Shown piece by piece: positions 1-19,460 of a DNA stretch of 64,000 bases. This stretch comes from Escherichia coli 042 (GTDB lineage Bacteria > Pseudomonadota > Gammaproteobacteria > Enterobacterales > Enterobacteriaceae). The notes beneath the pieces were generated by a model. The model saw only the letters and a program-made list of their open reading frames with translations. It was not told the origin of the DNA and made no database searches. Where the stretch lies: NCBI RefSeq assembly GCF_000027125.1, contig NC_017626.1; one strand, written 5' to 3'. The position numbers and the translations under genes are program-made. How positions within the stretch are numbered: the stretch's first letter is position 1; each line of letters begins with the position of its first letter.

Positions 1-1
1 G

Positions 2-1042
2 AAATTTACCCAGCAACGCCCTCATGCGCCGACCGATTACATGGAAGCGTTGCAAACCGATGGGCAGTTTGATTACGCAGCAAGCCTGGTTAAATCCCTT
101 GCCTCTCTGCTGGTAGTAACCAGCGGCAGTGCAATTGGTCGCGAAGGTGCGATGATTCTTTTAGCTGCCCTTGCTGCCTCCTATTTTGCGCAACGTTTTA
201 CGCCACGCCAGGAGTGGAAATTTTGGATCGCCTGTGGAGCTGCGGCGGGAATGGCTGCGGCCTATCGTGCCCCGCTTGCTGGCAGTTTATTTATAGCCGA
301 AGTGCTGTTTGGCACTATGATGTTGGCCTCTCTCGGCCCGGTGATTATTTCCGCCGTCGTGGCGTTGCTGGTTAGCAATCTGATTAATCATAGCGACGCG
401 TTACTCTACAGCGTACAACTCTCAGTGACGGTTCAGGCTCGTGACTATGCGCTGATTATCAGTACAGGTGTGCTGGCAGGTCTGTGCGGACCACTGTTGT
501 TAACGTTGATGAACGCCTGTCATCGTGGATTTGTAAGTCTCAAGCTTGCGCCGCCCTGGCAACTGGCACTGGGCGGGTTGATCGTGGGTCTGCTTTCCCT
601 GTTCACACCTGCAGTGTGGGGCAACGGCTATAGCACCGTACAATCCTTTTTAACCGCTCCGCCACTGTTAATGATCATTGCCGGGATCTTCCTCTGTAAA
701 CTGTTTGCCGTGCTGGCGAGTAGTGGTTCTGGCGCGCCCGGTGGTGTCTTTACACCGACGCTATTTATCGGTCTTGCCATTGGCATGTTGTATGGTCGTA
801 GCCTGGGATTATGGTTCCCTGATGGCGAAGAAATGACGCTTTTACTCGGATTGACCGGGATGGCGACACTGTTGGCGGCAACCACGCACGCGCCGATTAT
901 GTCGACGTTGATGATATGTGAAATGACCGGGGAATATCAGCTACTCCCCGGTTTATTGATTGCCTGCGTAATTGCGTCGGTAATTTCGCGGACGTTACAC
1001 CGTGACTCTATCTACCGCCAGCACACTGCGCAGCATAGCTAA
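2..1042 (+). CDS. clcB: ClC-family chloride channel, 5' end cut by window edge
   Basis: ORF 41..1042 extends in frame to position 2; translation matches remembered E. coli ClcB C-terminal two-thirds; synteny with bioD2/mlc. Confidence 0.9.
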
Positions 1043-1690
1043 GCGGATGTATTGCCCCAGTTCACGCTGTTCGGCGCGCGGCAGATAAGGCAGTTCACCA
1101 ATGAGCGGTGCCGGAAGTTTTTTACCCAGCACATCAATGATTTCCGCATAATGCGCCAGTCCTGGATTGATTCGGTTAGCCACCCAGCCAATGAGCGGCA
1201 GCCCGTCGTTGGCAATCGCCTGAGCTGTTAGTAGTGCATGGTTAATGCAACCTTCCTGAATACCGACAACCATCAATACCGGCAGTTGTTCCTGCACCAC
1301 CCATTCAGAGAGTGGACGCAAATCATTCATCAGACTGCGCCAGCCGCCAGTCCCTTCTACCACGACATGATCGACTTTTTCGGTCAGGTTTGCCAGGCCG
1401 TTTGAAATGAGGGTGTAATTGATTGGGCAACTGTGCGCCACGCTACTTTCTTCTTCGCTTAACGCGATAGGATTAACTGCTTCATAAGGCAGTTCGATGG
1501 TTGAAACACTCTGCAACACCAGGGCATCTTTATTACGCAGCCCTTCGGGTGTCTCTTTGCTCCCCTTCGCTACGGGTTTATATCCCGCAACCGTTTTTCC
1601 CTGGGAGGCTAACGCTTGTAGCAATGCGCGGGAAACCACCGTTTTCCCTACAGAAGTGTCTGTACCGGTAATAAAGAAACGCTTCAGCAT
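995..1690 (-). CDS. bioD2: dethiobiotin synthetase paralog
   Basis: ORF 995..1702; P-loop GTDTSVGKT; K-12 YnfK starts MLKRFF (internal Met, so start set to 1690). Confidence 0.85.
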
Positions 1691-1814
1691 CACTAACTCC
1701 ACCGTTATGCTTCACAAATATAAACTAGGAAAATAATTAACTTTGAAAGTCTAAGTTATGCTTTCCTGGCCCAAATTGAGATAGCGCAAATTTTGGTAGA
1801 ACAGTTAAAAAATG

Positions 1815-3035
1815 TTAACCCTGCAACAGACGAATCAACAAAGAACCGTTATACATCGCGTCTTTTACCAGCGCAGCCCCTGCCATCGTACCCTGGTTAG
1901 AAAACTGAGTACTCTCAACGCTAATGTGCTGACTATACGCAGGAAGGGCCTGCTGACGGATGCTGTCCGAGATGACCGGGAAGAGGATATCTGCCGCTTT
2001 ACTTAACGGTGAGCCAATCAGTATTTTTTGTGGGTTAAATAAATTCACCATGATGGCAAGAATGCGCCCGACATGCGCGCCCACCCCGGTAATGATGTCT
2101 TTTGCCAGCAGATCGCCGCGCAATGCCGCCTGACACAATGAGTCCACGGTTAACGGCTGTCCATGTAACATCGAGCTCATGGATTGATTGAGACGCAGCT
2201 GTGCCAGCTCAAGAATACTGTCCACACTGGCGATGGTTTCGAGGCAGCCGTGATTCCCGCAATAACAACGTTTCCCATACGGGTCGACCTGTGTGTGGCC
2301 TATTTCCACGAGACTACTGCTGCCTGCGTGTAGCAGATGACCATCGGTAATGACGCCCGCCCCCACGTTGTGATCGATAACCACCTGAATCACATCGCGC
2401 GCCCCGCGTGAGGCACCAAACAAGGCCTCAGCCATCGTCCATGCGCTGATATCATGCTGAATATAAACCGGTACGCCGGTATGCTGCTCCAGCGCCTCGC
2501 CGAGCGGCATCTCTTTTACATCCTCGTAGAACGGCATGCGATGTACAATACCATTTTCCGTATCAATAATTCCCGGCAAGGTAATGGCAATCGAAGTCAG
2601 ACGCTCAAGTTTTTTCTGATGGCGGATAAAAAACTGATCGATATGGGAAATAATACGATCCAGCAATGGCAAGTCATCTTTTAACGCCAGTTCCTGCGAC
2701 TCTTCCACCACCAGTTTGCTGCTCAGATCGCGCAGAGCAAGGAAAATCTCCCCGCGACTAATGCGCAGAGAAAGATAGTGCCAGGCTTCAGTTTCAACCA
2801 CCAGCCCCACCGCCGGACGGCCACGGTTCCCCGCTTCTTTGATTTCCAGCTCTTGCACCAGGTGTGCTTCGAGCATCTCACGGACAATTTTAGTGATACT
2901 GGCAGGAGCCAGTTGCGCCAGACGGGAAAGATCGATACGCGAGACTGGACCAAGCTGATCAATCAGGCGATAAACCGCGCCCGCGTTGGTCTGCTTTATT
3001 TGATCAATGTGCCCAGGCTGGTTTTCAGCAACCAC
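1815..3035 (-). CDS. mlc: ROK-family glucose-responsive transcriptional repressor Mlc
   Basis: 406 aa ORF matching remembered Mlc sequence (MVAENQPGHIDQIK...). Confidence 0.92.
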   Translation of the reverse strand: MVAENQPGHIDQIKQTNAGAVYRLIDQLGPVSRIDLSRLAQLAPASITKIVREMLEAHLVQELEIKEAGNRGRPAVGLVVETEAWHYLSLRISRGEIFLALRDLSSKLVVEESQELALKDDLPLLDRIISHIDQFFIRHQKKLERLTSIAITLPGIIDTENGIVHRMPFYEDVKEMPLGEALEQHTGVPVYIQHDISAWTMAEALFGASRGARDVIQVVIDHNVGAGVITDGHLLHAGSSSLVEIGHTQVDPYGKRCYCGNHGCLETIASVDSILELAQLRLNQSMSSMLHGQPLTVDSLCQAALRGDLLAKDIITGVGAHVGRILAIMVNLFNPQKILIGSPLSKAADILFPVISDSIRQQALPAYSQHISVESTQFSNQGTMAGAALVKDAMYNGSLLIRLLQG

Positions 3036-3169
3036 CGCATACTCCCTATATTTTCGCGCTCCGAAATAATCTGTAGGCTATGGTGAAGCACTTCAATACG
3101 TGTCGTCAAATTTTTACTTAGGCATGTGATTAACAGCACATTTTTCGGGCTTTTTCGCTGAAATTTCCC

Positions 3170-4063
3170 TCACCTGAGAGCATTCAGCAGATGAATACGA
3201 AAGTTACGCGCAGCTGGACTTTGTTCATGATGTTTCGGCCAGACCAACCACATTTCAGAAACTGCATCCTCTTCAGCAATCGGCACCCAGCGCATTTCGT
3301 TGAGCTGAACACGTTTAAATGACGCAGGCAAAATTGAAACACCCAGACCGGCGGAAACCAGACCGATGATGGTCATTGCCTCGCCCACCTCCTGAGTGAT
3401 GACGGGCGTCAAATGGTAACGTCGCATCAGTCCGAGAATATCGTCATACAGCCCTGTCCCTACATGCGGATCAAAAAAGACAAAGGGTTCTTTCGCCAGT
3501 TCAGCCAGCGTTACATTCGGGTTATTTGCCAGGGGATGATCGTGCGGGATCATCGCCATAAGCGGTTCATGGACGATGACTGCGTGTTCAAGCGTCTCCG
3601 GTAACGCTGTGTTACGCAGCAATCCCATATCCAGCGTTCCTTCAATGAGCGGGGCGATTTGCTCGCGAGTGTTCATTTCGCGGGTTTGTAAATGGACATC
3701 AGGATAATCACGGCGAAACAGCGATAACGTATCGGACACCGCCCGAATAAAAGGAGCGGACGAAGTAAAACCAATGCGCAACTCCCCCGCTTCGCCCTGA
3801 TGCAGCCTTTCAGCGCGAGCGGCAGCGTCATCCACCATAGACAGGATTTGCCGACTATCTGCAAGAAACTGTTTTCCTGCTGCCGTCAGCAATACACTGC
3901 GATTGGTCCGTGCCAGCAGTCGGGCACCGATTTGTTGCTCCAGTGCCTGAATCTGCTGACTTAGCGGCGGTTGCGAAATATTCAGGCGGGCAGCCGCGCG
4001 CCCAAAATGCAGCTCTTCCGCAACAGCAACAAAGTAACGCAGATGACGAAGTTCAATATTCAT
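3170..4063 (-). CDS. ynfL: LysR-family transcriptional regulator
   Basis: 297 aa, N-terminal LysR HTH (MNIELRHLRYFVAVAEELHFGRAA); divergent from ynfM as in K-12. Confidence 0.85.
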   Translation of the reverse strand: MNIELRHLRYFVAVAEELHFGRAAARLNISQPPLSQQIQALEQQIGARLLARTNRSVLLTAAGKQFLADSRQILSMVDDAAARAERLHQGEAGELRIGFTSSAPFIRAVSDTLSLFRRDYPDVHLQTREMNTREQIAPLIEGTLDMGLLRNTALPETLEHAVIVHEPLMAMIPHDHPLANNPNVTLAELAKEPFVFFDPHVGTGLYDDILGLMRRYHLTPVITQEVGEAMTIIGLVSAGLGVSILPASFKRVQLNEMRWVPIAEEDAVSEMWLVWPKHHEQSPAARNFRIHLLNALR

Positions 4064-4169
4064 ATTTAAAACATCTTATTTGAGATTATTAATATATTAG
4101 ACAGAACAATTCCATTTTCCTACCCTATGTATAAACCTGATCCACAGGCATACTTAGCAAGGATTTCAA

Positions 4170-5423
4170 GTGAGCCGTACTACAACTGTTGATGGCGCTC
4201 CGGCAAGCGACACTGACAAGCAAAGCATTTCTCAGCCAAATCAATTTATTAAACGCGGTACGCCGCAATTTATGCGCGTCACCCTGGCGCTGTTCTCTGC
4301 CGGACTGGCAACCTTCGCACTTCTCTATTGTGTGCAACCTATCCTTCCGGTGCTTTCACAAGAGTTTGGCTTAACGCCTGCTAACAGTAGTATTTCACTG
4401 TCCATTTCAACGGCGATGTTGGCTATCGGTTTGCTGTTTACTGGCCCGCTATCCGATGCCATTGGTCGCAAACCAGTGATGGTCACGGCGCTACTGTTGG
4501 CCTCCATTTGTACGTTACTTTCGACAATGATGACCAGCTGGCACGGCATTTTGATTATGCGCGCCTTGATTGGGCTTTCGTTAAGTGGCGTGGCAGCTGT
4601 TGGCATGACTTATCTTAGCGAGGAAATCCACCCCAGTTTCGTGGCCTTTTCGATGGGGTTGTATATCAGCGGCAACTCAATTGGCGGTATGAGCGGACGC
4701 TTAATTAGCGGTGTCTTCACGGACTTTTTCAACTGGCGAATTGCTTTGGCGGCAATCGGTTGTTTCGCGCTGGCCTCGGCGTTGATGTTCTGGAAAATCC
4801 TCCCGGAATCACGCCATTTTCGCCCGACTTCACTGCGCCCTAAGACGTTATTCATCAACTTTCGTCTGCACTGGCGTGACCGGGGATTACCGTTATTGTT
4901 CGCAGAAGGCTTTTTGCTGATGGGGTCGTTCGTCACGCTGTTTAATTACATCGGCTATCGGTTGATGCTCTCTCCCTGGCATGTCAGCCAGGCCGTGGTT
5001 GGCTTATTATCGCTGGCCTATTTGACCGGTACATGGAGCTCCCCCAAAGCCGGAACCATGACCACCCGCTATGGGCGCGGTCCGGTGATGTTGTTTTCGA
5101 CGGGGGTTATGCTGTTTGGTTTACTGATGACCTTATTTAGCTCGCTGTGGCTGATCTTTGCCGGAATGTTACTCTTCTCAGCCGGATTCTTCGCAGCCCA
5201 CTCAGTAGCCAGCAGCTGGATCGGCCCCCGCGCAAAACGCGCTAAAGGCCAGGCCTCCTCGCTGTATCTGTTCAGTTACTATCTGGGGTCGAGTATTGCC
5301 GGGACGCTGGGTGGTGTTTTCTGGCATAACTATGGCTGGAACGGCGTCGGCGCATTTATTGCTCTGATGCTGGTCATTGCTCTGCTGGTCGGGACGAGTT
5401 TGCATCGTCGTCTGCACGCCTGA
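4170..5423 (+). CDS. ynfM: MFS transporter
   Basis: 417 aa polytopic membrane protein; K-12 synteny. Confidence 0.85.
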   Translation: MSRTTTVDGAPASDTDKQSISQPNQFIKRGTPQFMRVTLALFSAGLATFALLYCVQPILPVLSQEFGLTPANSSISLSISTAMLAIGLLFTGPLSDAIGRKPVMVTALLLASICTLLSTMMTSWHGILIMRALIGLSLSGVAAVGMTYLSEEIHPSFVAFSMGLYISGNSIGGMSGRLISGVFTDFFNWRIALAAIGCFALASALMFWKILPESRHFRPTSLRPKTLFINFRLHWRDRGLPLLFAEGFLLMGSFVTLFNYIGYRLMLSPWHVSQAVVGLLSLAYLTGTWSSPKAGTMTTRYGRGPVMLFSTGVMLFGLLMTLFSSLWLIFAGMLLFSAGFFAAHSVASSWIGPRAKRAKGQASSLYLFSYYLGSSIAGTLGGVFWHNYGWNGVGAFIALMLVIALLVGTSLHRRLHA

Positions 5424-5846
5424 AAAATAAGTCCGGACTGCGGTAAATACCCATCCGGACTTATTGCCTGCTCAAACCAACGTTAATAGCCATCCTAAAA
5501 TAGACGAAGCGCCAGCCAATTCCCGCAGCGCATCTAGCGTCATCAGGATTATAAGTACCCAAATAAACGGATTCATTTTGCTGTGTGTCATTTATTACTG
5601 ATGCGCAGTTATTCTACCGCTTTGTAAGTAGTAAAATAGTTAACCTGATCAAGACTACTATTATTGGTAGCTAAATTTCCCTTAAGTCACAATACGTTAT
5701 TATCAACGCTGTAATTTATTCAGCGTTTGTACATATCGTTACACGCTGAAACCAACCACTCACGGAAGTCTGCCATTCCCAGGGATATAGTTATTTCAAC
5801 GGCCCCGCAGTGGGGTTAAATGAAAAAACAAATTGAGGGTATGACA

Positions 5847-6155
5847 ATGAAAAAAGTATTAGCTCTGGTTGTTGCCGCTGCTATGGGTCTGTCTTCTGCT
5901 GCCTTTGCTGCAGAGACTGCGACCACACCTGCTCCGACTGCGACGACCACCAAAGCAGCGCCGGCGAAAACCACACATCATAAAAAACAGCATAAAGCAG
6001 CACCTGCCCAGAAAGCGCAGGCGGCTAAAAAGCATCATAAAAATGCCAAAGCTGAACAGAAAGCTCCTGAACAAAAAGCGCAGGCAGCGAAGAAACACGC
6101 CAAGAAACACAGCCATCAGCAACCGGCAAAACCTGCTGCACAACCCGCAGCGTAA
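5847..6155 (+). CDS. asr: acid shock protein (periplasmic, Lys/His/Ala-rich)
   Basis: ORF 5820..6155; K-12 Asr begins [21 protein letters not shown] (internal Met at 5847); signal peptide plus [12 protein letters not shown] repeats. Confidence 0.88.
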
Positions 6156-6247
6156 GTTATCAATAGTAATGCTGGCGCGCCCCCTCGCGCCTGAAAATTA
6201 CGGTGCTAAGCGGATAACGTTTAGCACCGCCTTTAGCGGAGGGTAGT

Positions 6248-6331
6248 ATGGTGGGCCGTTATCGCTTTGAGTTCATTCTTATCATCCTTATTTTATGCGC
6301 ACTGATTGCCGCCCGTTTTTATCTTTCCTGA
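6248..6331 (+). CDS. ydgU: small membrane protein YdgU (27 aa)
   Basis: Short ORF MVGRYRFEFILIILILCALIAARFYLS between asr and ydgD; matches remembered YdgU; too short for the ORF track. Confidence 0.55.
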   Translation: MVGRYRFEFILIILILCALIAARFYLS

Positions 6332-6430
6332 TCGTAGTTATCTGATTTTACTCCCACTTTCATCCCGTCCCGTCTATAGTATTTATGAGGGTTTGCTTTT
6401 AATAATCATAATTACCCACCAGAGTGTGAT

Positions 6431-7252
6431 ATGCGTACAACCATTGCTGTAGTGTTGGGTGCAATTAGTTTGACGTCTGCTTTTGTGTTTGCAGATAAAC
6501 CAGACGTTGCCAAATCGGCAAACGATGAGGTCAGCACCCTGTTTTTTGGTCATGATGATCGTGTGCCAGTGAATGACACGACCCAATCACCGTGGGATGC
6601 GGTTGGCCAACTGGAAACGGCCAGCGGCAATTTATGTACGGCGACGCTGATTGCACCCAATCTGGCATTAACGGCAGGACACTGTTTATTGACGCCGCCA
6701 AAGGGTAAAGCCGATAAAGCGGTAGCGCTGCGTTTCGTGTCAAATAAAGGTCTTTGGCGCTATGAGATCCACGACATAGAAGGCCGCGTTGATCCGACAC
6801 TGGGAAAGCGGTTAAAAGCAGATGGGGATGGCTGGATTGTACCTCCCGCAGCTGCGCCCTGGGATTTCGGTTTGATTGTGCTACGTAATCCCCCTTCTGG
6901 CATTACACCGTTGCCGTTATTTGAGGGAGATAAAGCCGCGCTTACCGCCGCATTAAAAGAGGCAGGTCGTAAAGTGACTCAGGCGGGATACCCTGAAGAT
7001 CATCTCGATACGTTGTACAGTCATCAAAACTGTGAAGTGACTGGCTGGGCGCAAACGTCGGTGATGTCGCATCAGTGCGATACCTTGCCGGGTGACAGCG
7101 GTTCGCCTCTGATGTTGCATACCGATGACGGCTGGCAATTAATTGGGGTGCAAAGTTCGGCTCCTGCCGCGAAAGATCGCTGGCGCGCCGATAACCGGGC
7201 CATTTCTGTTACCGGTTTTCGCGACAGGCTGGATCAACTGTCGCAAAAATAA
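6431..7252 (+). CDS. ydgD: secreted trypsin-like serine protease
   Basis: 273 aa, signal peptide, TAGHC and GDSGSPL catalytic motifs. Confidence 0.88.
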
Positions 7253-7257
7253 TGTTC

Positions 7258-7283
7258 AAACGCTGCCCGACAGCGCGGGCAGC
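7258..7283. terminator. hairpin between convergent ydgD and mdtI (approximate coordinates)
   Basis: cgctgcccg-acag-cgggcagcg inverted repeat. Confidence 0.5.
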
Positions 7284-7290
7284 GTGTTCA

Positions 7291-7620
7291 TCAGGCAAGT
7301 TTCACCATGATCATTCCAGCCAACAGCAAGACCAGGCCAATCCAGCCTTTACGATTTAACCGTTGACCAAACAAGATCCAACCTGCGGCTAACGTGGCGG
7401 CAATACCAAACCCGCCCCACAATGCATAAGCGACAGACAAGTCGATCCCTTTAACGGCCTGAGAAAGCGCACTAAAGGCAGCCAGCACCGCCGACAGGGA
7501 GAGCAAGCCAAATATTTTGCGACGAAAGCCGTCAGAAAATTTCAAAAAGACGTTAGCAACGATTTCCAGCACGATTGCCAATGCCAGCCAGGCGGCGTGA
7601 ACCCATTCAAACTGCGCCAT
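7291..7620 (-). CDS. mdtI: SMR-family spermidine exporter subunit
   Basis: 109 aa small multidrug resistance fold; K-12 synteny. Confidence 0.9.
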
Positions 7621-7972
7621 GGTTCACCTCCAGTTCAGGTTTACGCGCTTTACGGGTACCTGATTTGATCAATACAATCCCGGCCACCAGGGTGGTTAAC
7701 CCGGCAATTTTCATCAGCGATAAACTTTCGTCGAATAACAAAACGCTAAACAAGGTAATAAATAAAATACCGATACCTTCCCACAGCGCATAAGCCACGC
7801 CTAAGGCGATTTTTTTAACGGCGAAAGAGAGAAATATATACGACAGAGAAATCATCACCAGCATTAAAATAAAGCCGCCATTTCCCTCACTGACGCTCGC
7901 CCATTTCATGGACAGCGTACCGGTAATTTCTGTAGCAATAGCCAGGCCTAATAAAATCCAATAAATATACAT
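7607..7972 (-). CDS. mdtJ: SMR-family spermidine exporter subunit
   Basis: 121 aa; overlaps mdtI start as in K-12. Confidence 0.9.
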
Positions 7973-8383
7973 TGTCCTTCTCCTGCAAGAGAATTATTTT
8001 AATTTTCGCTTAATTCAGCGAAACCAAAGTAAAGTGGTCAAGCCCCGCGCTTAGCGCAAGCTTTGGCAGAAGAAAGGACTAAAGCGCGTTGCGCCAGTGC
8101 TGCTCACCTACGAGCAAGATAGTGGATGAGGTACGAAGATGGGTAAATGTAGAAAATAACGTCCTGAACAAATTGTCCATAATATTACAATTATCCGCAG
8201 TGTTGCTTCTCGTCATCGCGGATGATAATTGTCCTCGGTAGTTGAACACGCCTGATTTGTATCATAGCTTAAGAATTAACTCAAAATATTTTCACTTCTT
8301 TACCTGAGCGGTTTGATTTTCGTTATGATGACGGAGCGAAAAAGACATTATTATTAGCAAAGGAAGAAAAAACGGGGACAAGC

Positions 8384-8530
8384 ATGGCAAAGCCGATCAT
8401 CACGCTCAATGGCCTAAAAATCGTCATTATGTTGGGAATGCTGGTCATTATTCTCTGCGGTATCCGTTTTGCCGCCGAGATCATCGTGCCGTTTATTCTC
8501 GCATTATTTATTGCTGTTATATATAACTAA
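8384..8530 (+). pseudogene. tqsA: tqsA 5' fragment (codons 1–45) ending at the island junction
   Basis: Encodes [45 protein letters not shown] then IYN-stop from island DNA; remainder of tqsA resumes at 19546. Confidence 0.8.
8512..8520. repeat. attL core (TGCTGTTAT)
   Basis: Identical 9-mer at 19546..19554; lies at tqsA codons 44–46. Confidence 0.7.
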
Positions 8531-8591
8531 TTTCACTTAACGCATTGATTTAATTAAATGATTTGCACTACAAAAAGTGCCATAAATCGCA

Positions 8592-8650
8592 AAATGACTA
8601 CACCAGTGACTACACCGTTCGGTGCACTGTATGAAACAACGTGGAACAAA
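8592..8650. promoter_or_regulatory. arm-type repeat block (GACTACACC x2), homologous to block near attR
   Basis: atGACTACACCagtGACTACACCg plus shared flanking motifs, matching 19391..19460. Confidence 0.5.
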
Positions 8651-8929
8651 TAGACACAAGAAATATACAGGCGGGTCATCTTTCCAGGGGGAAGCGCGCT
8701 AATTCATGAGGGGCGTTAATGTTGATATGGGGATCCCCATAACGGGGCTACCGGATTTTTTTTCCGGTTAACTGTTAATCAGGCTGGTGGGCTTTACCTG
8801 TTTTGTAGGAGTGGTCATTATGACCATTCAGACAATGACCTTAATCAGAACTTTTCGCTAAAAAATGACGTTGGTCACGTCGTCCGGAAAGCACAAAATC
8901 CCGTCAATTTTTAATTAACGGTTAAACCG

Positions 8930-8990
8930 TCTTTTGTCACGGCGTGTCACTGGTTGTCACTCTCCGTCACGGTATGTCGCTACTCGTTAA
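8930..8990. repeat. helically phased TGTCAC/GTCAC array (about 5 copies)
   Basis: tgtcacggcgtgtcactggttgtcactctccgtcacggtatgtcgc, ~10–11 bp spacing; at 3' end of the leftmost island gene. Confidence 0.45.
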
Positions 8991-9268
8991 CGCCGTAACC
9001 GCTCCGGCTTCTTCCAGTGGTACGTAATTTTCTCCGTTTCCCGATACAGTGCCACGCGGCGATTGTAGGCCAGCATTTCAAGAACGCGGATCCGTATGTT
9101 GCGCATATCCACATCATTAAGCTGGATACCATCACGGCGCATCACCTCAGCAACCACACGCGCGTAATTTTCGGCGGTCACGCTGTCCGGCTGCGTGGCC
9201 TGTTCGTCATGCTGCTGGCTGATTCCGGTAACGCGGCGGATTAATCCCAGTAGTTCGGCTTCTGTCAT
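8987..9268 (-). CDS. hypothetical protein (93 aa)
   Basis: ORF 8987..9466 trimmed to Met MTEAELLG; upstream part of the track ORF is read-through of the cos repeat. Confidence 0.45.
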   Translation of the reverse strand: MTEAELLGLIRRVTGISQQHDEQATQPDSVTAENYARVVAEVMRRDGIQLNDVDMRNIRIRVLEMLAYNRRVALYRETEKITYHWKKPERLRR

Positions 9269-9301
9269 TGTGCCCCCATCGCTCTGATAGTCTGGTGTCG
9301 T

Positions 9302-9365
9302 CGGGTCCTTCCTGGAATTATGGCCCGTTACGGGGCGGCGACCTCGCGCGTTTTCACTATTTATG
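9302..9365 (+). other. lambda-type cos site, copy A (cosN GGGCGGCGACCT at 9333..9344)
   Basis: cgggtccttcc...gttacg|GGGCGGCGACCT|cgcgcgttttcactatttatgaaaattttt matches remembered lambda cosQ–cosN–left-end sequence. Confidence 0.75.
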
Positions 9366-9547
9366 AAAATTTTTCGGGATCCATGTCCGGTTTCTCTGCA
9401 AGTTAACCATATGAAAAATATAAAAACATGCTTTCCATGAACCGGACATGCGCAAAAAACAGACACTAAAACCGGACATCGAACCAGTTAACCGAAAGTG
9501 TGCACAAATCACATGCATTGCTGCGAGTGATTAACAAGTTATCGGCT

Positions 9548-9982
9548 TTACTGTTCTGTATCGGCTGATTGCTCCATGCTGGCACGGCGAACGCTTATGG
9601 CATGACGCCACCCAGCCAGAAAGCCAGCCATTTTATTTCGTGCCTTGCTCACATCTTCCGGTGAATAGCCGTAAATCTGCAAACCTTCATCAAATCGATG
9701 TTCTGTTTCTTCACTGGAGTACTCGTCACGCTCAGATGAAAGCAGCCTGGCAAACATAATTTTTTCCAGCGCACTGGTTTCTACGTGATATCTGATGGTC
9801 TCAAGACGGCTTTTACCTGAAGACCAAAGCAATGTATGCCCGATGTGATAACCGCCAGACTTTCCGCGATCCGCATTAAGATACGGCATCCCCTGTTTGG
9901 TCCATGCGCGAATAGTGGTTCTGTTAACCTTGAAATGTTCAGCTATTTCCTGCTGACTTACAAAACAAGCTTTATCAATCAT
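9548..9982 (-). CDS. Nu1-like small terminase homolog (N-terminal HTH); possible packaging-redirecting protein
   Basis: 144 aa; VSQQEIAEHFKVNRTTIRAWTKQGMP resembles lambda Nu1 VNKKQLADIFGASIRTIQNWQEQGMP; flanked by cos copies. Confidence 0.7.
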   Translation of the reverse strand: MIDKACFVSQQEIAEHFKVNRTTIRAWTKQGMPYLNADRGKSGGYHIGHTLLWSSGKSRLETIRYHVETSALEKIMFARLLSSERDEYSSEETEHRFDEGLQIYGYSPEDVSKARNKMAGFLAGWRHAISVRRASMEQSADTEQ

Positions 9983-10050
9983 AATGTTACCTTAACTGCA
10001 TGGTTAAATATTAATCAAGTGGTGGTGGTGTCACCTTCACGGAAAAACGT

Positions 10051-10114
10051 CATAAATAGCGAAAACCCGCGAGGTCGCCGCCCCGTAACGGGCCATAATT
10101 CCAGGAAGGACCCG
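10051..10114 (-). other. lambda-type cos site, copy B (cosN at 10072..10083), inverted relative to copy A
   Basis: Reverse complement is cgggtccttcctggaattatggcccgttacgGGGCGGCGACCTcgcgggttttcgctatttatg; ~90 bp upstream of the Nu1-like start. Confidence 0.75.
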
Positions 10115-10117
10115 TAA

Positions 10118-10138
10118 AAAAGCCGGATTTCTCCGGCC
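10118..10138 (-). terminator. rho-independent terminator after the 137-aa gene
   Basis: Minus strand gccggagaaatccggc followed by T-run; same hairpin recurs near 12390 and 12759. Confidence 0.6.
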
Positions 10139-10143
10139 TTGTC

Positions 10144-10557
10144 TCAGATGTTTTTCAGTATGCGATCGATGTCGCCGTCATCGCCCTGGTTTCTGCCATC
10201 GTATGCCATGCCAGCTGATACGGCTTGCGGGCTGTGCATGTCCATAAAGTTTTCAAAGGCTGCGGTAAGTTCCGGCGCAACCTTCGGACGTTCCTGCTCT
10301 ATGGTCATGCTAAGGATGCTTTTAGCCGTACCAACATCGATACAAGGCACGTTTGCCATTGCACGCAACAGCGGCTGATAGTCTTTATGCTCATGAAGCG
10401 CCATAATCGCATCAGCGCGCGGCTTGTCCTGCTCTTCCAGTTTGTTTAGTTGATGTACGGCCTCATAGGTTGATAAACCTCTGTCAGCCATTGCCCGCGC
10501 TTCGACTTTAAATTTACTCGCCAGCGGTAGCGTCATGATGCTTTCATTCGTTGCCAT
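10144..10557 (-). CDS. hypothetical protein (137 aa), last gene of capsid operon
   Basis: ORF; tightly packed after the gpD-like gene. Confidence 0.5.
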   Translation of the reverse strand: MATNESIMTLPLASKFKVEARAMADRGLSTYEAVHQLNKLEEQDKPRADAIMALHEHKDYQPLLRAMANVPCIDVGTAKSILSMTIEQERPKVAPELTAAFENFMDMHSPQAVSAGMAYDGRNQGDDGDIDRILKNI

Positions 10558-10569
10558 CGTTCCCCCTGC

Positions 10570-10905
10570 TTATCGGGCCAGCGGCTGAACGGATACGCCG
10601 GAACCCGCAAAGGCGGCGCATTTTTTCGCATCGGTGTCGACGCTCTCAGGCCAGTTAACGGCGGCAATATTGAATATCCCCGTCTTGTAACACTGTGCTG
10701 ATTTCTGCTTTGACGTGTCCACAGGGTACGAGGTCAGATAAACAGCCTTGCCAGATTCCTGACCATCCCACGGCTTAAACTCGCCATTGTCTGCCAGCAT
10801 CAGCGGGGTAAATTCCTGAATAACGCCAGCATCAGCGGCAAAATGTACCAACGTCGTGGATACCTGCTGACTGCCTGCAAATAACTCAATGTATGGAGTG
10901 TCCAT
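10570..10905 (-). CDS. head decoration protein, lambda gpD-like
   Basis: 111 aa; TPLMLADNGEFKPWDG...KTGIFNIAAVNWPESVDTDAKKCAAFAGSGVSVQ parallels lambda gpD (110 aa). Confidence 0.72.
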   Translation of the reverse strand: MDTPYIELFAGSQQVSTTLVHFAADAGVIQEFTPLMLADNGEFKPWDGQESGKAVYLTSYPVDTSKQKSAQCYKTGIFNIAAVNWPESVDTDAKKCAAFAGSGVSVQPLAR

Positions 10906-10917
10906 AGAATCCCCCCG

Positions 10918-11973
10918 TTAACCAATTTTGACGGTAACAAATTTGCGAATATCTGCCGGTACCGGCTGCGGTGCACTGTGTGTCTGCACGTACTCAATCG
11001 CCGGATCGCCGTCCTCAATCCAGTTTTTCGGGTAAAACATGTTTTGTGTTGCGCCCGTTCTTACCGCTTCCTGATCCATTATCGCACCATAGGCCACCAG
11101 CCCTTTATTGTTGGTGTTACCCAGGACCAGCAAATCAGGCTCAAGGAAATATTTTTCGGTACCATCGCTGTCAGTGTATTTGCCGGAATAGACGATAAGG
11201 GCCAGATCACCAAGATAGCCTTTAAAGCTCACCACTTCGCCCAGGTTTTTACAGGCCAGTTCGGCGGCGGATTCTGAACCACGGGAAAGATCGTACAGCT
11301 CACGGAATTTTTTAAAGCTGCGTAATGTGCGCCATACCTCAGCGCCCATAATCATGACGTTTGCGGGGCAACCAGCCTGATCAGCATAAAGCTCGATGTC
11401 ATAGATTGGGTCGTGCATGTCTTTATCCTGCTCGGACCATTTTTTACCCTTGGCCTGCTCTATGATGCAGTTTTCCGGTATTTTCCAGTCGATTTCATAG
11501 CGTTCTATGCCTTCGCCCTCAATGATGTTTTTTCCGGTCGTTACCGCATTCACCGCCAGCCATTCCACGCGTGCCTTAATGGCGTTTATCTGGCGGCGCA
11601 TGTTGCCAGTAATCAGGCGCATACGGCGATAGGTAGGGTCGTTAAGCTGTGCCGGATCTTCTCCAGCCATGCGCATGATGGTTTTCGTTGGATCGATTTC
11701 GTGCTTTGGCTTCATGTAGCCAGGTTTGATTGTGCTGGTTTCGTACCCTTTATCGCGCTGAACCTGGCTACCCACCATAGGCGAACAAAACGCCGACATG
11801 GTGACTTCTTCAATGTCCAGGGTATCCAGCATGATGTTTTGCGTGCTGAATGTCGCCACGTTCGGGAAAAACAGCGTGGTAAACAGAGGGCTGAATTTAA
11901 AATCCGCAATATCCCCGCGATTCAGGTACATGAAAAGCTGGTTAGTGTTAAGTGCCGTTGCTTTGCCTGCCAT
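10918..11973 (-). CDS. major capsid protein, lambda gpE family
   Basis: 351 aa (lambda gpE is 341 aa); adjacent to gpD-like gene. Confidence 0.75.
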   Translation of the reverse strand: MAGKATALNTNQLFMYLNRGDIADFKFSPLFTTLFFPNVATFSTQNIMLDTLDIEEVTMSAFCSPMVGSQVQRDKGYETSTIKPGYMKPKHEIDPTKTIMRMAGEDPAQLNDPTYRRMRLITGNMRRQINAIKARVEWLAVNAVTTGKNIIEGEGIERYEIDWKIPENCIIEQAKGKKWSEQDKDMHDPIYDIELYADQAGCPANVMIMGAEVWRTLRSFKKFRELYDLSRGSESAAELACKNLGEVVSFKGYLGDLALIVYSGKYTDSDGTEKYFLEPDLLVLGNTNNKGLVAYGAIMDQEAVRTGATQNMFYPKNWIEDGDPAIEYVQTHSAPQPVPADIRKFVTVKIG

Positions 11974-12212
11974 TATTCACCCCCATAATTTTTATGCATC
12001 CCAAGCGCCGCAAGTAAATAAGAGCGTACAAGTGAACCTATCGACGGCTCCGGCGTCATCAGCGGATCCAGTCCAGCCGCAACGCCAGCTTCATAGTTTT
12101 TTTTGTGGCGCTGCTTGAGCACCTCCACGATTTCGGGGCTTATGTACACCGAAACACCGCCTTTTTTCTCTTCAGCCATAGTAAGAAATTCCTCTTCGAC
12201 TAAAAAAATCAT
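11973..12212 (-). CDS. hypothetical protein (79 aa, or 68 aa from internal Met), first gene of capsid operon
   Basis: ORF; stop overlaps capsid start (ATGA). Confidence 0.45.
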   Translation of the reverse strand: MIFLVEEEFLTMAEEKKGGVSVYISPEIVEVLKQRHKKNYEAGVAAGLDPLMTPEPSIGSLVRSYLLAALGMHKNYGGE

Positions 12213-12235
12213 AACTGGATGTTTATCCAGTTATG
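12208..12235. promoter_or_regulatory. 12-bp inverted repeat (tcataactggat-gttt-atccagttatga) overlapping capsid-operon start codon
   Basis: Perfect 12-bp arms with 4-bp spacer; AT-rich region with further palindrome ttgcattttatgcaa just upstream. Confidence 0.5.
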
Positions 12236-12344
12236 ATTATAATCAGAATTGCATTTTATGCAATGATATTGAGTTATGTTGCAAATTATGAAATGATTAT
12301 CCCGATCACGAACGCCAGTGCATCCAAAAACCTCATATGCAAAA

Positions 12345-12410
12345 GCCCGATAAGAACCCTCTGACCTTATCGGGCTTTTTTTGGGCGCAAAAAAGCCGGA
12401 TTGCTCCGGC
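12345..12410. terminator. tandem hairpins (bidirectional terminator region, approximate)
   Basis: gcccgataag...cttatcgggc + T7, then aaaaaagccggattgctccggc. Confidence 0.55.
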
Positions 12411-12430
12411 TATGTGTGCTGTGTGCTGGC

Positions 12431-12655
12431 TCAGTCTCTGATCTCTTTCAGAAATTCTATCAATGCATCTATCTGTTCAGGATTTACCGCCAGCATTTCA
12501 CCGGATAGAGCACATCTCACAAAACCATGCTGATCCTTTTCAATCAGTGCGCCCGTCTCCAGGAATGCGCGGTAATCATTGATGCTCATCGTCTCCATGT
12601 TGTCAGCATGGTATTTATCACGCTGTTTTAATATCTCATCAAATTTCATCGGCAT
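12431..12655 (-). CDS. hypothetical protein (74 aa)
   Basis: ORF followed by terminator hairpin. Confidence 0.45.
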   Translation of the reverse strand: MPMKFDEILKQRDKYHADNMETMSINDYRAFLETGALIEKDQHGFVRCALSGEMLAVNPEQIDALIEFLKEIRD

Positions 12656-12758
12656 TGTTTTTTTCCTCTGTTGTGTCTGTTTGTTTCAGATAGTAACTAT
12701 GCCTGACCGTGACGAAAACCCGGTAATGCGCCATACCGTTTCAACTGGTGCAAAAAAA

Positions 12759-12774
12759 GCCGGATTTCTCCGGC
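12759..12774 (-). terminator. rho-independent terminator after PerC-like gene
   Basis: aaaaaaagccggatttctccggc. Confidence 0.6.
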
Positions 12775-12781
12775 TGTTTGA

Positions 12782-13054
12782 TTAGCTGTCCTGGTAATTG
12801 CGCCATATTTCATCACCAGCACCATCTATACCCATTTCGGCATAAGTGCGATCGACTGCCTTTTTCAGGTCTCCGAAATTATCCGGCGGCTCCGGTGCCC
12901 TCTGTGCCTTCCTTGAACATTCCAGCCGTCGCATCGTGATGTGATGCCGTTCCTTGTCTGTCTCCACCAGCTGCATGACTTCACCCCATCGCGCCGCCGC
13001 CCTCCGGTAAAAGCCTTTCGCCTCCAGTTCCTCCGCTATGCGGTCATGTACCAT
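12782..13054 (-). CDS. PerC-family transcriptional regulator-like protein
   Basis: ORF 12782..13174 trimmed to Met MVHDRIAEELEAKGFYRRAAARWGEVM, which resembles the PerC/Pch motif LExxGxWRRAAxRW. Confidence 0.55.
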   Translation of the reverse strand: MVHDRIAEELEAKGFYRRAAARWGEVMQLVETDKERHHITMRRLECSRKAQRAPEPPDNFGDLKKAVDRTYAEMGIDGAGDEIWRNYQDS

Positions 13055-13064
13055 CGTCACCCCC

Positions 13065-13475
13065 TCAGAACGAAATATCATCACCGTAAGGGTCATCGCC
13101 TCCCGCTGGTGGCTGATTACCCTGTGTGCCTGTGGTTTTGCGTCTGTTCCCGCCTGGACGTGCCGCGCGGGCACTGATTACGCTGTCTGCGATAACCTGC
13201 CAGCCCTGCCGCGTTTCTCCGTTCTGTCCGGTCCACTGGCTTACCTGCATCGTGCCGGATACGCTGGCAACATCGCCTTTTTGATGTTTAGCCAGGAAGT
13301 CGGCCTGTTTGCCAAATGCGATGACCGATAACCATAACGTCGCCTGTCCGTCCTGTGCCTGGCTGCATGGCAAAGATACCGCCATACGCGCCAGCGTCAT
13401 CGGTGTGCCCTTGCTGGTCTGTTTTACCTGCGGGTCGTCCACCAGCCGCCCGTAAGCGGCTATCTGTGCCGTCAT
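13065..13475 (-). CDS. ssb: single-stranded DNA-binding protein
   Basis: 136 aa; OB-fold segments parallel E. coli SSB; Gly/Pro-rich tail ending DDPYGDDISF (compare DFDDDIPF). Confidence 0.8.
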   Translation of the reverse strand: MTAQIAAYGRLVDDPQVKQTSKGTPMTLARMAVSLPCSQAQDGQATLWLSVIAFGKQADFLAKHQKGDVASVSGTMQVSQWTGQNGETRQGWQVIADSVISARAARPGGNRRKTTGTQGNQPPAGGDDPYGDDISF

Positions 13476-13753
13476 AATTCCACCTCTCCGGTTTTAACGT
13501 TGATGGTTGTTACCTGTTCCGCTTCGGCAATCTCCCGTTCTGTCAGCGTGGCAAAGTTTGCCGCCGCCGTGGTCATGAATGCGCTTATCAGGTCGGGATG
13601 TTCCTTCGCGTATCCTTCCCGCGTGTGGCGGTCTATCGTTCTGATTGCCACCTTTAAGGTGTGCTCAGTCATGTCTAACGCTTTATATTTTGGCTCTGTT
13701 CTGTCTCTGCGTTTTTGGGTCATTTCTCGCAACCTCTCACTTTTTCGCCTCAC
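13472..13753 (-). CDS. hypothetical protein (93 aa)
   Basis: ORF overlapping ssb start by 4 nt; 5' end overlaps iteron region. Confidence 0.4.
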   Translation of the reverse strand: MRRKSERLREMTQKRRDRTEPKYKALDMTEHTLKVAIRTIDRHTREGYAKEHPDLISAFMTTAAANFATLTEREIAEAEQVTTINVKTGEVEL

Positions 13754-13925
13754 TTTTTCAAGCGTCTCACTTCGTCGCAGTTGGGATTTTCGGTTTTTCT
13801 ATGTGTGTGTTTCATAAGTATTTTTTTACCCCTCACTTTTGAGGATGTATACAGGTCGAAAAGTGAGGGAGAGCGGGCTAATTTTGGCCCTCTTTCTATC
13901 CCCCTCGCTTTTGCTCCTCACTTTT
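13733..13925. repeat. candidate replication origin: CCTCACTTTT iterons (about 6 direct, 1 inverted) with AT-rich spacer
   Basis: Iterons at about 13733, 13748, 13764, 13829, 13859 (inverted), 13901, 13916; directly 3' of the replication ATPase gene. Confidence 0.6.
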
Positions 13926-15324
13926 ATAGCGGCGCTACATCATCCCCATCGATACGAATAACCCCATCTTTTTCCAGCTTGTACAGCCAGCGCCGGAAGT
14001 TTTTCATTTCATACCCCAGCTTTTTCATGTCATCACGTAACAGCGGGATCGTGCACTTGTCGCCGTTCTGTGTGCGTGAACGGATGCACCCCCATAGCGC
14101 GGTATGGTTTTCCGTCTTGTTCCCTGCCTCCTCGATGCGCTCCAGTTCAACAGGAGGGCGCGGATCATCCACCACCACCAGCGACGTGATTAATTCACCG
14201 TCAGCGTCGGTAAAAAGCTCCACCACGCGTAAGTCATATGCGGCTTCTTTGAGTTCCTCCGCGTCCTTCATTTTGGTGCATGAGATAACCAGCGCTTCGC
14301 TTCCTGCGTCCTCCCTGCGTATCCGGTATTCAGCATCCAGCGAAGCACGAAATGCACTGGAACCGCGCGCGCCTTTCGTCTCATCCTTGCCGGAATGGTG
14401 AACCACCAGCACCGTGGCCCCTGTGCGTCGTTTCAGTTCGTCACAACCACGGATAAACGCCCCCATATCACGGGAATCATTTTCATCATTCCCACCAAAG
14501 CAACGCGCCAGCGTATCCAGAATAATCATGCGTACAGGTTTACCCGTTTCCCGCTCCACCTGACGGGCAGCGATAACCATTTCATCAACATCAAGCGGGG
14601 CAGCCGGAAAGATGGGGCGGTTTACCAGATACAGATTTTTCACCTGCTCATCGTGCACAACCTCCCAGGCTTTTACACGACGCGGAACACCTATACCGCC
14701 TTCACCAACCACATAGAGAACCGCACCATGTGCAACCCTGCGGCCTCCCCACTGGCGACCAGTGGCAACATGGCACGCCCACGATCCAGCAAGGAATGAT
14801 TTATAGGACCCGCTAGCCCCGTATATGCTGCATAGCGATACCGCCGGAATAATCCCCTTAACCACGTAATCCAGTTGCGTGTCGTATCCGGTAGATCCAA
14901 CGCTCATCGGTAGCGTGGTTTTTCGCTGGTGTTTTTTTTCTTCCGCCGGCTCTTTCCCGCGCACCCGTTCCAGGTATTCGCGCCAGTTCTCCCGCATATG
15001 GCTGTGCATCCCTTCGGGGTAATAATTCGCATCAGTTACACCCGCCGCCGCCAGCTTGTGCGCAATGGCATTAATATTTGATGGCCTGATGTGGCCTGCC
15101 TTGTACAGCCGGACACAATAGCGCCCCTCGTCGATGATTCTCAGGTCTGCCAGTTCATCCAGTTGATCATCAGCCAGCACAACGGGAGGCACATTATCGC
15201 CAGCCAGTCGCCCGTCCTGTTCCTGCCACTGTTTCGCATGTGCCCAGGCATCACTACCCGCAAAAATAATGACTTCGGTCATCTTGTCGTAAGGCTGTTT
15301 TTTTAAGTTCGGTGCGCTTTTCAT
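13924..15324 (-). CDS. replication protein, RecA-fold ATPase / helicase-like (primase-replicase candidate)
   Basis: 466 aa; Walker A GASGSYKS, Walker B MIILDTLARCFGG, VLVVHHSGK motif typical of phage/plasmid RepA or DnaB-like ATPases. Confidence 0.75.
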   Translation of the reverse strand: MKSAPNLKKQPYDKMTEVIIFAGSDAWAHAKQWQEQDGRLAGDNVPPVVLADDQLDELADLRIIDEGRYCVRLYKAGHIRPSNINAIAHKLAAAGVTDANYYPEGMHSHMRENWREYLERVRGKEPAEEKKHQRKTTLPMSVGSTGYDTQLDYVVKGIIPAVSLCSIYGASGSYKSFLAGSWACHVATGRQWGGRRVAHGAVLYVVGEGGIGVPRRVKAWEVVHDEQVKNLYLVNRPIFPAAPLDVDEMVIAARQVERETGKPVRMIILDTLARCFGGNDENDSRDMGAFIRGCDELKRRTGATVLVVHHSGKDETKGARGSSAFRASLDAEYRIRREDAGSEALVISCTKMKDAEELKEAAYDLRVVELFTDADGELITSLVVVDDPRPPVELERIEEAGNKTENHTALWGCIRSRTQNGDKCTIPLLRDDMKKLGYEMKNFRRWLYKLEKDGVIRIDGDDVAPL

Positions 15325-15859: not shown

Positions 15860-16319
15860 GGCTTACATCCTCAGGAAATTTTCTTCTATAACGCGCCTCT
15901 GCCACATATTCCGCATAATCGGCGGCGATATTCAGTACATCAAGCCCCGTTGATTTATATTCTCTCGTGGAAAGTAAGAAAAAAGCCGCTCTAATAAGTT
16001 CTGGCATTGACGAAAGCGCATCAGCCGCATCATCAGGAACGCCGGAAAATTCCTGTTTCAGGGAATTAAAACGATCATCACGCATAACCCCCCCCCCATT
16101 TTCACAATCAGCAATCAGGATAGCTTTGGCCTCATTCAGCGCCGTATCAGCACTAAATTGCATGACAGCCAGTGAGTGAGGAACGAAAGCACCGGCATAT
16201 TCTGTTTCGCTGGTGGCGTGCTTATGTGCCCTGTCCGCGATAACAGAAATATCAATCAGCGCGTGCATCAGCGTTTTGATGGCTTCGGCGGCTGCGTCCG
16301 GTGTGGTTTTATTGTGCAT
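15852..16319 (-). CDS. hypothetical protein (155 aa) containing a G10 homopolymer
   Basis: ORF; codons GGG-GGG-GGG at 16088..16097. Confidence 0.45.
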   Translation of the reverse strand: MHNKTTPDAAAEAIKTLMHALIDISVIADRAHKHATSETEYAGAFVPHSLAVMQFSADTALNEAKAILIADCENGGGVMRDDRFNSLKQEFSGVPDDAADALSSMPELIRAAFFLLSTREYKSTGLDVLNIAADYAEYVAEARYRRKFPEDVSHA

Positions 16320-17585: not shown

Positions 17586-17774
17586 TTAATGAACTGCCTT
17601 GCAGCTATCCTTCCAGGCCAGAACCTCGGATAAAGACCAGCCAACGGAACGACCGCCAAGTTTACGACGTGATGGGAATTGTCCGGCCTTTTCCAGGCGG
17701 TAGCGACACGTACGGCTAAGGCCGGTTAGTTTTTCGCATTCTTTTTCACGTATAAACCGATCAGTGCTTAACAC
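17586..17774 (-). CDS. alpA: AlpA-family phage transcriptional regulator / excisionase-like
   Basis: 62 aa; LTGLSRTCRYRLEKAGQFPSRRKLGGRSVGWSLSEVLAW matches AlpA HTH pattern. Confidence 0.8.
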   Translation of the reverse strand: MLSTDRFIREKECEKLTGLSRTCRYRLEKAGQFPSRRKLGGRSVGWSLSEVLAWKDSCKAVH

Positions 17775-18140
17775 TATTGCCCCCCCTTTCGTTTCTTAAA
17801 GAGTCATCAGGTGTCTTATTGTGTCGTATTGTTCCCGCTAGAGTGATGAATGGCAAATATTGAGGATGTATGATTTACAGAAAATGAAACAGTAAGAATA
17901 AAATCTTTTAAATTCATGTTAATACAAAGGCATAAAATATTGTTTCATGCCTTTTTTCTCGCTCTTTAAAGAGTGATTCGCTAGTGTATAAAAAACCAGT
18001 GACACATTAAAAATCAGCCACTTATAAATCTGTATGCTTTTTCGCCTCTTGTTCGTGGTTGTTCCACATTGTTGCTCATTGTTGCACGTTGTATCTGTTC
18101 GCATATACAGTATGCGCATACTGAAAAAACACGAAAAAAA

Positions 18141-19370: not shown

Positions 19371-19390
19371 GTTTTACCCCCTCTTTACGA

Positions 19391-19460
19391 AAAAGTGACT
19401 ACACCAGTGACTACACCGATCGTTGCACAAAGGGCTACAACGTGAAACAAGCTGGAACAA
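19391..19460. promoter_or_regulatory. arm-type repeat block (GACTACACC x2) between int start and attR
   Basis: gtGACTACACCagtGACTACACCg at 19397..19417, homologous to 8592..8650. Confidence 0.5.

Follow-up and report, generated by a model that had tools for sequence, protein, structure and literature searches.

Paired 12-bp repeats as probable integrase arm-type sites in the attP of a phage satellite inserted in Escherichia coli tqsA

The tqsA island and its repeat pairs

The window (the whole 64,000-nucleotide stretch of Escherichia coli 042 DNA analyzed here) carries an 11,034-bp PICI-type phage satellite inserted in tqsA, between mdtJI and pntB. A 9-bp identity block, TGCTGTTAT, is found at both ends of the island and in empty tqsA, and the uninterrupted gene of strain PEC1021 reads ttattgctgttattcttaacc at the empty site, which confirms the junctions. 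Among 5,426 complete E. coli genomes, tqsA is intact in most, and at least 80% of the queried region was recovered in 326. All of the island genes lie on the minus strand. The integrase matches the Pfam families PF13356 (Arm-DNA-bind_3, residues 8 to 95; E value, 1.3e-18; 67 bits against a cutoff of 27) and PF00589 (E value, 3e-16), as well as the N-terminal domain of a CP4-like integrase in the PDB (3jtz; E value, 9.5e-6), and the beta-hairpin of its arm domain is DGGNLSVKYLTSGKLTWYFTYR. Other island genes encode an AlpA-family protein, a RepA-type helicase, an SSB, a lambda E-like capsid protein, a D-like decoration protein, and a helix-turn-helix (HTH) protein that occupies the position annotated as the small terminase in related islands. 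This gene set matches that of Gram-negative phage-inducible chromosomal islands. The features on which the attP analysis is built are as follows.

8512 to 8520, plus strand: attL core, or identity block, TGCTGTTAT (9 bp), the crossover region in tqsA, common to attL, attR, and empty tqsA
8593 to 8616, plus strand: P' arm doublet, two 12-bp units, AATGACTACACC and AGTGACTACACC; candidate Int arm-type sites P'1 and P'2
17586 to 17774, minus strand: alpA, encoding a winged-HTH protein of the Phage_AlpA family (Pfam PF05930; E value, 5e-17)
18141 to 19370, minus strand: int, encoding a tyrosine integrase with an N-terminal arm-binding domain (residues ~8 to 95; Pfam)
19394 to 19417, plus strand: P arm doublet, two 12-bp units, both AGTGACTACACC; candidate Int arm-type sites P1 and P2
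19546 to 19554, plus strand: attR core TGCTGTTAT, common to attL, attR, and empty tqsA

The interrupted tqsA gene, which encodes an AI-2 transporter, persists as remnants at 8386 to 8520 and 19568 to 20452. It is cut after about 46 codons, and the downstream part is called a pseudogene in the RefSeq annotation of a strain with the identical insertion (L003), so carriers of the island probably lack TqsA. Within the island, a 78-nucleotide inverted repeat (9302 to 9379 and 10037 to 10114, 91% complementary) flanks a terS-like gene (9548 to 9982). The same inverted repeat flanks a terminase small-subunit gene in a neighboring element, L002, in which the DNA between the arms is unlike that of the window; the terS-like region looks like a cassette exchanged between two islands that are otherwise 99.8% identical. 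Directly downstream of the RepA-type helicase gene (13924 to 15324, minus strand), three copies of a 17-nucleotide repeat, TTTTnCnCCTCACTTTT, are spaced 83 to 85 bp apart at 13741 to 13925, together with a 24-nucleotide palindrome at 13830 to 13869, and this region is a candidate replication origin of the island. A hairpin-containing element, AAAAAAGCCGGATTTCTCCGGC, is found three times between island genes (10113 to 10142, 12386 to 12415, and 12750 to 12779), and its copies are probably intergenic terminators or attenuators.

A search of the whole 64-kb window yielded four exact copies of GACTACACC, all on the plus strand, at 8596 to 8604, 8608 to 8616, 19397 to 19405, and 19409 to 19417; about 0.5 copies of an exact 9-mer are expected by chance per 128 kb, that is, 64 kb on both strands. 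The four copies make up two tandem pairs, 8596 to 8616 and 19397 to 19417. The left pair begins 76 bp into the island from the attL core, and the right pair, which lies between the attR core and the int start codon (GTG at 19370), ends 129 bp from that core. An initial annotation of the stretch had placed two directly oriented copies near each junction, and its coordinates and distances were correct. It had also described nearly identical blocks of about 60 bp, which holds for the first ~27 nucleotides (one mismatch) and is overstated beyond them: a repeat search returned a direct repeat of 76 nucleotides (8591 to 8666 and 19392 to 19467) with 76% identity and with the GACTACACC pairs at its head. 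The longest exact stretch common to both blocks is 23 nucleotides, TGACTACACCAGTGACTACACCG, and a match of that length between two 200-bp regions has a chance expectation of 200 × 200 × 4^-23 = 6e-10. In the remainder of the blocks, agreement is found mainly at a second, different motif, AACAA with a 10-bp period.

The core TGCTGTTAT is unrelated in sequence to the doublet word. The P' arm doublet starts 80 bp from the core center, and it is kept at five of the six E. coli insertion sites examined. The P arm doublet ends 133 bp from the core center and lies 24 to 47 bp upstream of the int start codon, a placement in which it could serve also as a candidate int operator.

attP at other insertion sites and in other integrase clades

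Joining the excised ends gives an attP of about 290 bp, in which two co-oriented doublets of the 12-bp unit N4-ACTACACC are separated by 233 bp, measured between their starts. Matches to the int-side arm, diverged to varying extents, were found in more than 1,000 E. coli genomes, and comparison elements were taken from tqsA, caiT, phoQ/roxA (three, including that of strain CFT073), allC/allE, smrA/abgR, and clpS/cspD. At five of these six sites, eight elements showed a site-specific identity block of 9 to 11 bp at both junctions and a tandem ACTACACC pair on each side. The sites with a reconstructed attP were tqsA, caiT, phoQ/roxA (including EcCICFT073), smrA/abgR, and clpS/cspD, each with a different core. 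In the allC/allE element (L006), both doublets were present, and the search for a shared core of 9 bp or more gave no hit.

Across the eight reconstructed attPs, the int-side doublet ends 130.5 to 133.5 bp from the core center, and the far-side doublet starts 79 to 82.5 bp from it. The start-to-start distance between doublets is 232 to 233 bp, with the one exception of L007, at 222 bp. There, exactly one 10- to 11-bp unit of the int-side AACAA array is missing, making the attP about one helical turn shorter. This element is from strain CFIAFB20120266 (relevant stretch, 16060 to 16100), and its Int lacks four residues (AEGK) after the arm domain. In the attP alignment, the best-conserved islands are the doublets and the AACAA-type units that follow each doublet with a 10-bp period. 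The core of the word is invariant in the eight elements while the flanking DNA diverges; the unit flank is AGTG in the window and in L004, and ATTA or ATTG in others. The comparison with attP regions of related integrases that the initial annotation had proposed thus turned out in its favor, the doublets being present in eight reconstructed attPs from five E. coli sites.

Two observations concern the mobility of the module. The integrase of L004 (strain 94-3024) is 97% identical to that of the window, yet the element is inserted in caiT and not in tqsA. The attP cores of L004 and the window differ by 2 nucleotides (AAAATGTTTTTAT versus AAAATGCTGTTAT), and the pair looks like a case of retargeting through the overlap sequence with the enzyme almost unchanged. 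As to cargo, L003, L006, and L011 carry genes for an HK97-type capsid, a protease, a portal, an HNH protein, and a large terminase (the capsid-forming PICI type), and the window element, L002, and L005 carry lambda E/D-like capsid and decoration genes and a small terminase. One int/attP/alpA module is joined to two cargo sets and would move between satellite types.

A protein search identified integrase relatives at 53 to 74% identity. The more distant elements were collected by protein database and contig look-ups, with the addition of a Klebsiella record and of HE-PICI examples located through the published motif. Each distant clade has a doublet or triplet of a 12-bp unit starting 14 to 60 bp upstream of int, with a word of its own.

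L014, E. coli: CTGACCACACAA, three units
L015, L016, and L021, Salmonella: CTGACCTCACA, two units
L017 and L018, Salmonella: ATTAACTACAC, two units
L019, fis-PICI (E. coli): CTGACTACAC, two units
L020, Yersinia: AGACTACACC, two units
L013, Klebsiella: TGTTTATACA, two units
L029, HE-PICI: TGCAATACACA, two units

With integrases at 41 to 74% identity (fis-PICIs, HE-PICIs, Salmonella, Yersinia, and Klebsiella), the 12-bp period is kept and the word is changed. Where both arms were available, the pair-to-pair distance was 231 to 234 bp (232 for L013, about 234 for L019, and 231 for L029). Most units, placed in register, fit [G/C/T][T/A][G/A]AC[T/C][A/T]CAC[C/A]A; outside this consensus are the Klebsiella word, which is more divergent, and the HE-PICI unit, which shares the A-N-TACAC center only.

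The Klebsiella element comes from a 106-kb "phage genome" record (Klebsiella phage P12620-1, PQ569648.1) with a PICI-type integrase at 93 to 94 kb and an apparently intact attP, in which two doublets 232 bp apart flank a sequence resembling the 3' end of fis. A satellite may have been included in the record, or the assembly may be mixed. A further element, L022 (GCA_018102155.1 contig, locus 1 to 13702), encodes a 74%-identical integrase and has an ATTAACT[G/A]CACC doublet. It lies just downstream of the Stx toxin genes, the lysis genes, and two unidentified ORFs of an Stx prophage, which is a helper-embedded arrangement, but its word is of the ACTACACC type and not the published HE-PICI word.

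Which protein reads the doublets

The window element and L004, which share the AGTG flank, have Int arm domains that are 97% identical, and in all elements with ATTA or ATTG flanks, the arm domain is 69 to 76% identical to that of the window. Among 13 elements, word distance was correlated with arm-domain identity at a rho of −0.68, compared with −0.45 for AlpA and −0.32 for the rest of Int; the p-values leave shared ancestry and physical linkage uncontrolled, and the AGTG-versus-ATTA flank change is a single evolutionary event, so these correlations are supportive and not decisive. Three pairs of elements separate the two proteins.

Window and L002: AlpA 100% identical, arm domain 76% identical, 4 word mismatches (of 22)
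L010 and L014: AlpA 87% identical, arm domain 57% identical, 7 word mismatches (of 22)
L002 and L010: AlpA 61% identical, arm domain 77% identical, 1 word mismatch (of 22)

These comparisons support the view that changes in the word follow the Int arm domain and not AlpA. The int-side doublet is ~30 to 60 bp from the coding sequence of the arm domain, so joint inheritance by linkage can mimic covariation; the far-side doublet is ~230 bp away in attP. Overall identity is also a crude proxy, since L002 and L017 share a word at 65% arm-domain identity.

It is unlikely, in our judgment, that the 12-bp doublets are AlpA sites and that Int uses some other arm sequence, such as the 10-bp AACAA arrays. 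The arm-type sites of lambda can also be tandem with a period of about 10 bp, and the AACAA arrays could in principle be arm sites for that reason. Induction of EcCICFT073 requires AlpA (PMC6092414), proteins of the AlpA family bind direct repeats, and AlpA was listed as a possible binder of the doubled motif in the HE-PICI study (PMC10111431). Against this, the window and L002 have the same AlpA, yet their word flanks and Int arm domains differ, and the words of L010 and L014 differ at seven positions with AlpA 87% identical. AlpA must, moreover, act upstream of alpA, and the doublet word is absent there in the window and in the other clades compared, whereas a clade-specific AACAA-type array is present. 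The typical spacing of recombination directionality factor (RDF) sites, one helical turn (PMC7498355), fits the 10-bp arrays and not the 12-bp doublets, and the equivalent 12-bp repeats are labeled arm repeats in the P4 record. The arrays, and one further candidate site, are located as follows.

8538 to 8550, minus strand: exact IHF-consensus match AATCAATGCGTTA, between the core and the far-side doublet; candidate bend site
8633 to 8661, plus strand: P' arm array, three AACAA-type units with a 10-bp period (AACAA at 8635, AACAA at 8645, and CACAA at 8655); candidate AlpA/RDF sites
18047 to 18095, minus strand: four to five [C/G]AACAA units with an exact 10-bp period in the int-alpA intergenic region, in alpA sense; candidate AlpA operator
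19436 to 19462, plus strand: P arm array A, TACAA, AACAA, and AACAA with a 10-bp period; candidate AlpA/RDF sites
19507 to 19533, plus strand: P arm array B, next to the core, GAAACA, GAAACA, and AAAACA with a 10-bp period; read from the sequence

In the window, AACAA-N5-AACAA occurs seven times against 0.27 expected, and five of the seven occurrences lie in the two arms and upstream of alpA. The matches at 33872 and 50084, outside the island, were set aside as chance, being isolated two-unit matches with no att or int context. In other clades, an array specific to the clade is found at both places, the arm and the alpA upstream region (TAAACCA-N3-TGAACGA in L021; GGACAA/GGACGA in L017), and 10-bp arrays are found at the position equivalent to P arm array B in L014, L017, and L021. 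The three att-arm arrays (8633 to 8661, 19436 to 19462, and 19507 to 19533) are direct repeats one helical turn apart, the arrangement typical of RDF sites (PMC7498355); the 12-bp doublets do not have this spacing. AlpA activates its own promoter and is needed for EcCICFT073 induction (PMC6092414). On the grounds of the recurrence upstream of alpA, AlpA self-activation, the RDF-type spacing, and a comparable array in P4, the 10-bp-period AACAA arrays most likely bind a protein other than Int, for which AlpA, as activator and likely excision factor, is the candidate. The arm-site reading of the blocks would thus apply to the first ~24 nucleotides of each and not to the remainder, which is a 10-bp-period array. 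The IHF-consensus match is one of six exact WATCAANNNNTTR matches in the 64 kb, and by eye, the consensus is kept in the attP alignment of L002, L004, L005, and L007. We infer that IHF may bind at 8538 to 8550.

A second alternative, that the doublets are mainly an int operator (and control read-through across attP), that they contribute little or nothing to synapsis, and that the far-arm copy is secondary, we consider improbable. The int-side doublet does lie just upstream of the int start codon, and autorepression by Int through att-arm sites is documented for P4 (PMC7286903) and KplE1 (PMC2951348). However, an operator leaves unexplained a second doublet 233 bp away across the core, with a spacing that is constant to about 1 bp across clades and that changes, in L007, by about one helical turn only. 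A scan of the arm for sigma-70 promoters and terminators (19300 to 19620) also found no int promoter. An operator role is compatible with arm-site function as an addition and not as a replacement.

Very improbable is a third reading, in which the blocks are passive duplicates (the remnant of a tandem insertion or an internal duplication) or sites for a host protein, with no role for Int. Passive duplicates would decay and drift, and the word core is instead invariant in eight elements whose flanks diverge. The layout persists, moreover, with other words at 41 to 74% Int identity and in P4, and a host-protein site would keep one word per host species, while L014 and L019, both from E. coli, differ. 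The doublets were also rejected as replication iterons, since the candidate origin repeats are elsewhere (13741 to 13925) and iterons would not be split between island ends, and as a packaging site, since no relation to the terS region was found.

The GACTACACC pairs are very probably docking sites for the N-terminal arm domain of the island integrase. The integrase has a separate arm domain, the repeats are inside the element on both sides of the core and unlike it, their positions are fixed whatever the chromosomal target, and their word covaries with the arm domain. The suggestion of the initial annotation that they are likely integrase arm-binding sites is favored by all of the sequence-level tests run.

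Known attP architectures and a possible mechanism

The concept of arm sites and the layout of the P4 attP reportedly date from 1987 (Pierson and Kahn). The GenBank record of P4 (NC_001609) annotates an "attP arm sequence repeat" at 3942 to 3953, 3954 to 3965, 4151 to 4162, and 4163 to 4174, around a core at 4078 to 4097, and the int-side pair is 16 bp from the int start. The units read [A/T][G/T]ATGCCCCCAA on the int side and ATATGCCCCCTT and TTGTGCCCCCAC on the far side. Like the window element, P4 has two-plus-two co-oriented tandem 12-bp units, in the order of a pair next to int, the core, and the second pair. It likewise has a 10-bp-period array after the int-side pair (CGGACAA, CGGAAGA, and AGGACGA), an integrase of the same N-terminal arm-binding domain family, and an AlpA-family protein (Vis). 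The 10-bp repeats upstream of vis that are labeled "ori type 2" were rejected as a counterpart of the alpA-upstream array, being of an unrelated, TTGCTTTAAG-type sequence. Unlike the window element, P4 has a ATGCCCCC unit in place of ACTACACC and a pair distance of 209 bp in place of 233 bp, two helical turns shorter; its record lists two further single repeats without a counterpart in the window element. The integrases are only 24% identical, and P4 targets a tRNA-Leu gene (PMC7286903), whereas the window element disrupts tqsA. As judged from these sequences, P4 and the window element are of one design and belong to different specificity groups.

The closest published description is that of the HE-PICI motif, a doubled 8-bp core with a 12-bp period, present in two co-oriented copies 81 ± 2 and 132 ± 2 bp from the attP center (PMC10111431, 2023). 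That study left the binder open between Int arm domains and AlpA and reported the motif as absent from other PICIs, including fis-PICIs (PMC10111431). The window doublets, at 80 and 133 bp, are within the published geometry, and the HE-PICI L029 has its doublets 231 bp apart, start to start. The HE-PICI word, TGTATTGC (GCAATACA in the orientation of the window), differs from ACTACACC and in register shares the A-N-TACAC center only. The HE-PICI integrase is 41% identical to that of the window, and HE-PICIs reside inside prophage late genes, in contrast to the chromosomal tqsA location of the window element. Contrary to an HE-PICI-only reading, the fis-PICI, Salmonella, Yersinia, and Klebsiella clades have doublets with words of their own. 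The doubled motif of 2023 is one version of a design common to many PICI integrases and P4. The window element has an HE-PICI/P4-type layout with its own word, which is ordinary and calls for no new mechanism.

EcCICFT073, the model Gram-negative PICI, is element L005 of our comparison, and its Int is 91% identical to that of the window. It resembles the window element in its doublets, arrays, and spacing and in the array upstream of alpA. It differs in its location between phoQ and roxA, its core (AAATATGTCC), its flank (ATTA versus AGTG), and its arm domain, which is 75 to 76% identical. EcCICFT073 has been shown experimentally to excise, replicate, and transfer, with AlpA as an activator (PMC6092414). 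Our literature searches found no description of EcCICFT073 arm sites, and a full-text search for ACTACACC together with integrase returned nothing relevant. The IntS/TorI module of KplE1 and the Int/Xis module of lambda also share with the window element a heterobivalent integrase whose arm-type sites are separate from the core. In lambda, there are five arm sites (two plus three), with Xis sites on one arm only, unlike the four arm units (two plus two) and the candidate RDF arrays on both arms of the window element. The RDF sites of both modules are direct repeats, and in KplE1, the arm and RDF sites overlap the int promoter (PMC2951348).

Taking these comparisons together, we consider it likely that the doublets are Int arm-type sites in the attP of the tqsA satellite and take part in intasome folding. 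The four 12-bp units would be bound by the N-terminal domains of the four protomers of an Int tetramer, and the core would be bound and cleaved by the C-terminal parts of Int. Bending of the DNA between core and arms, where the one exact IHF-consensus site is found, would fold the arms onto the core to give the intasome. Since integration leaves one doublet in attL and one in attR, excision would again need both. The location of the int-side doublet 24 to 47 bp upstream of the int start implies that Int occupancy should also limit int transcription. The Int of P4 represses its own promoter (PMC7286903), and the KplE1 arm sites overlap the int promoter (PMC2951348); with no int promoter found in the scan of 19300 to 19620, int autoregulation in the window element is argued purely by analogy with these two. 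A less confident step is the role of the AACAA arrays as AlpA sites, which would couple island induction to recombination directionality.

More tentatively, and with somewhat less than even confidence, we suggest that the ~76-nucleotide block, present on both arms, is a two-protein module that combines an Int doublet with an AlpA array, with AlpA as activator and directionality factor and with a common intasome geometry. In such a module, AlpA, induced by the helper, would act on both arms, unlike Xis of lambda, which acts on one. The ~22 helical turns between the doublets would fix the geometry across PICI integrases from 41% to 100% identity, and P4 would be a version two turns shorter.

The analysis provides a base-level attP map for the EcCICFT073-type integrase clade, with the core, four arm units, a candidate IHF bend, and three candidate AlpA arrays, and it generalizes the motif of 2023, with a nearly constant spacing of 231 to 234 bp in PICI integrases. 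The map may help to define the boundaries of satellites in genome sequences, to design minimal attP cassettes for PICI-based delivery vehicles, and to select residues and bases in specificity-swap work. If the two-protein module exists as proposed, the attP and the arm-site word would be predictable from sequence for any member of the family, and retargeting would be possible by changing the core alone.
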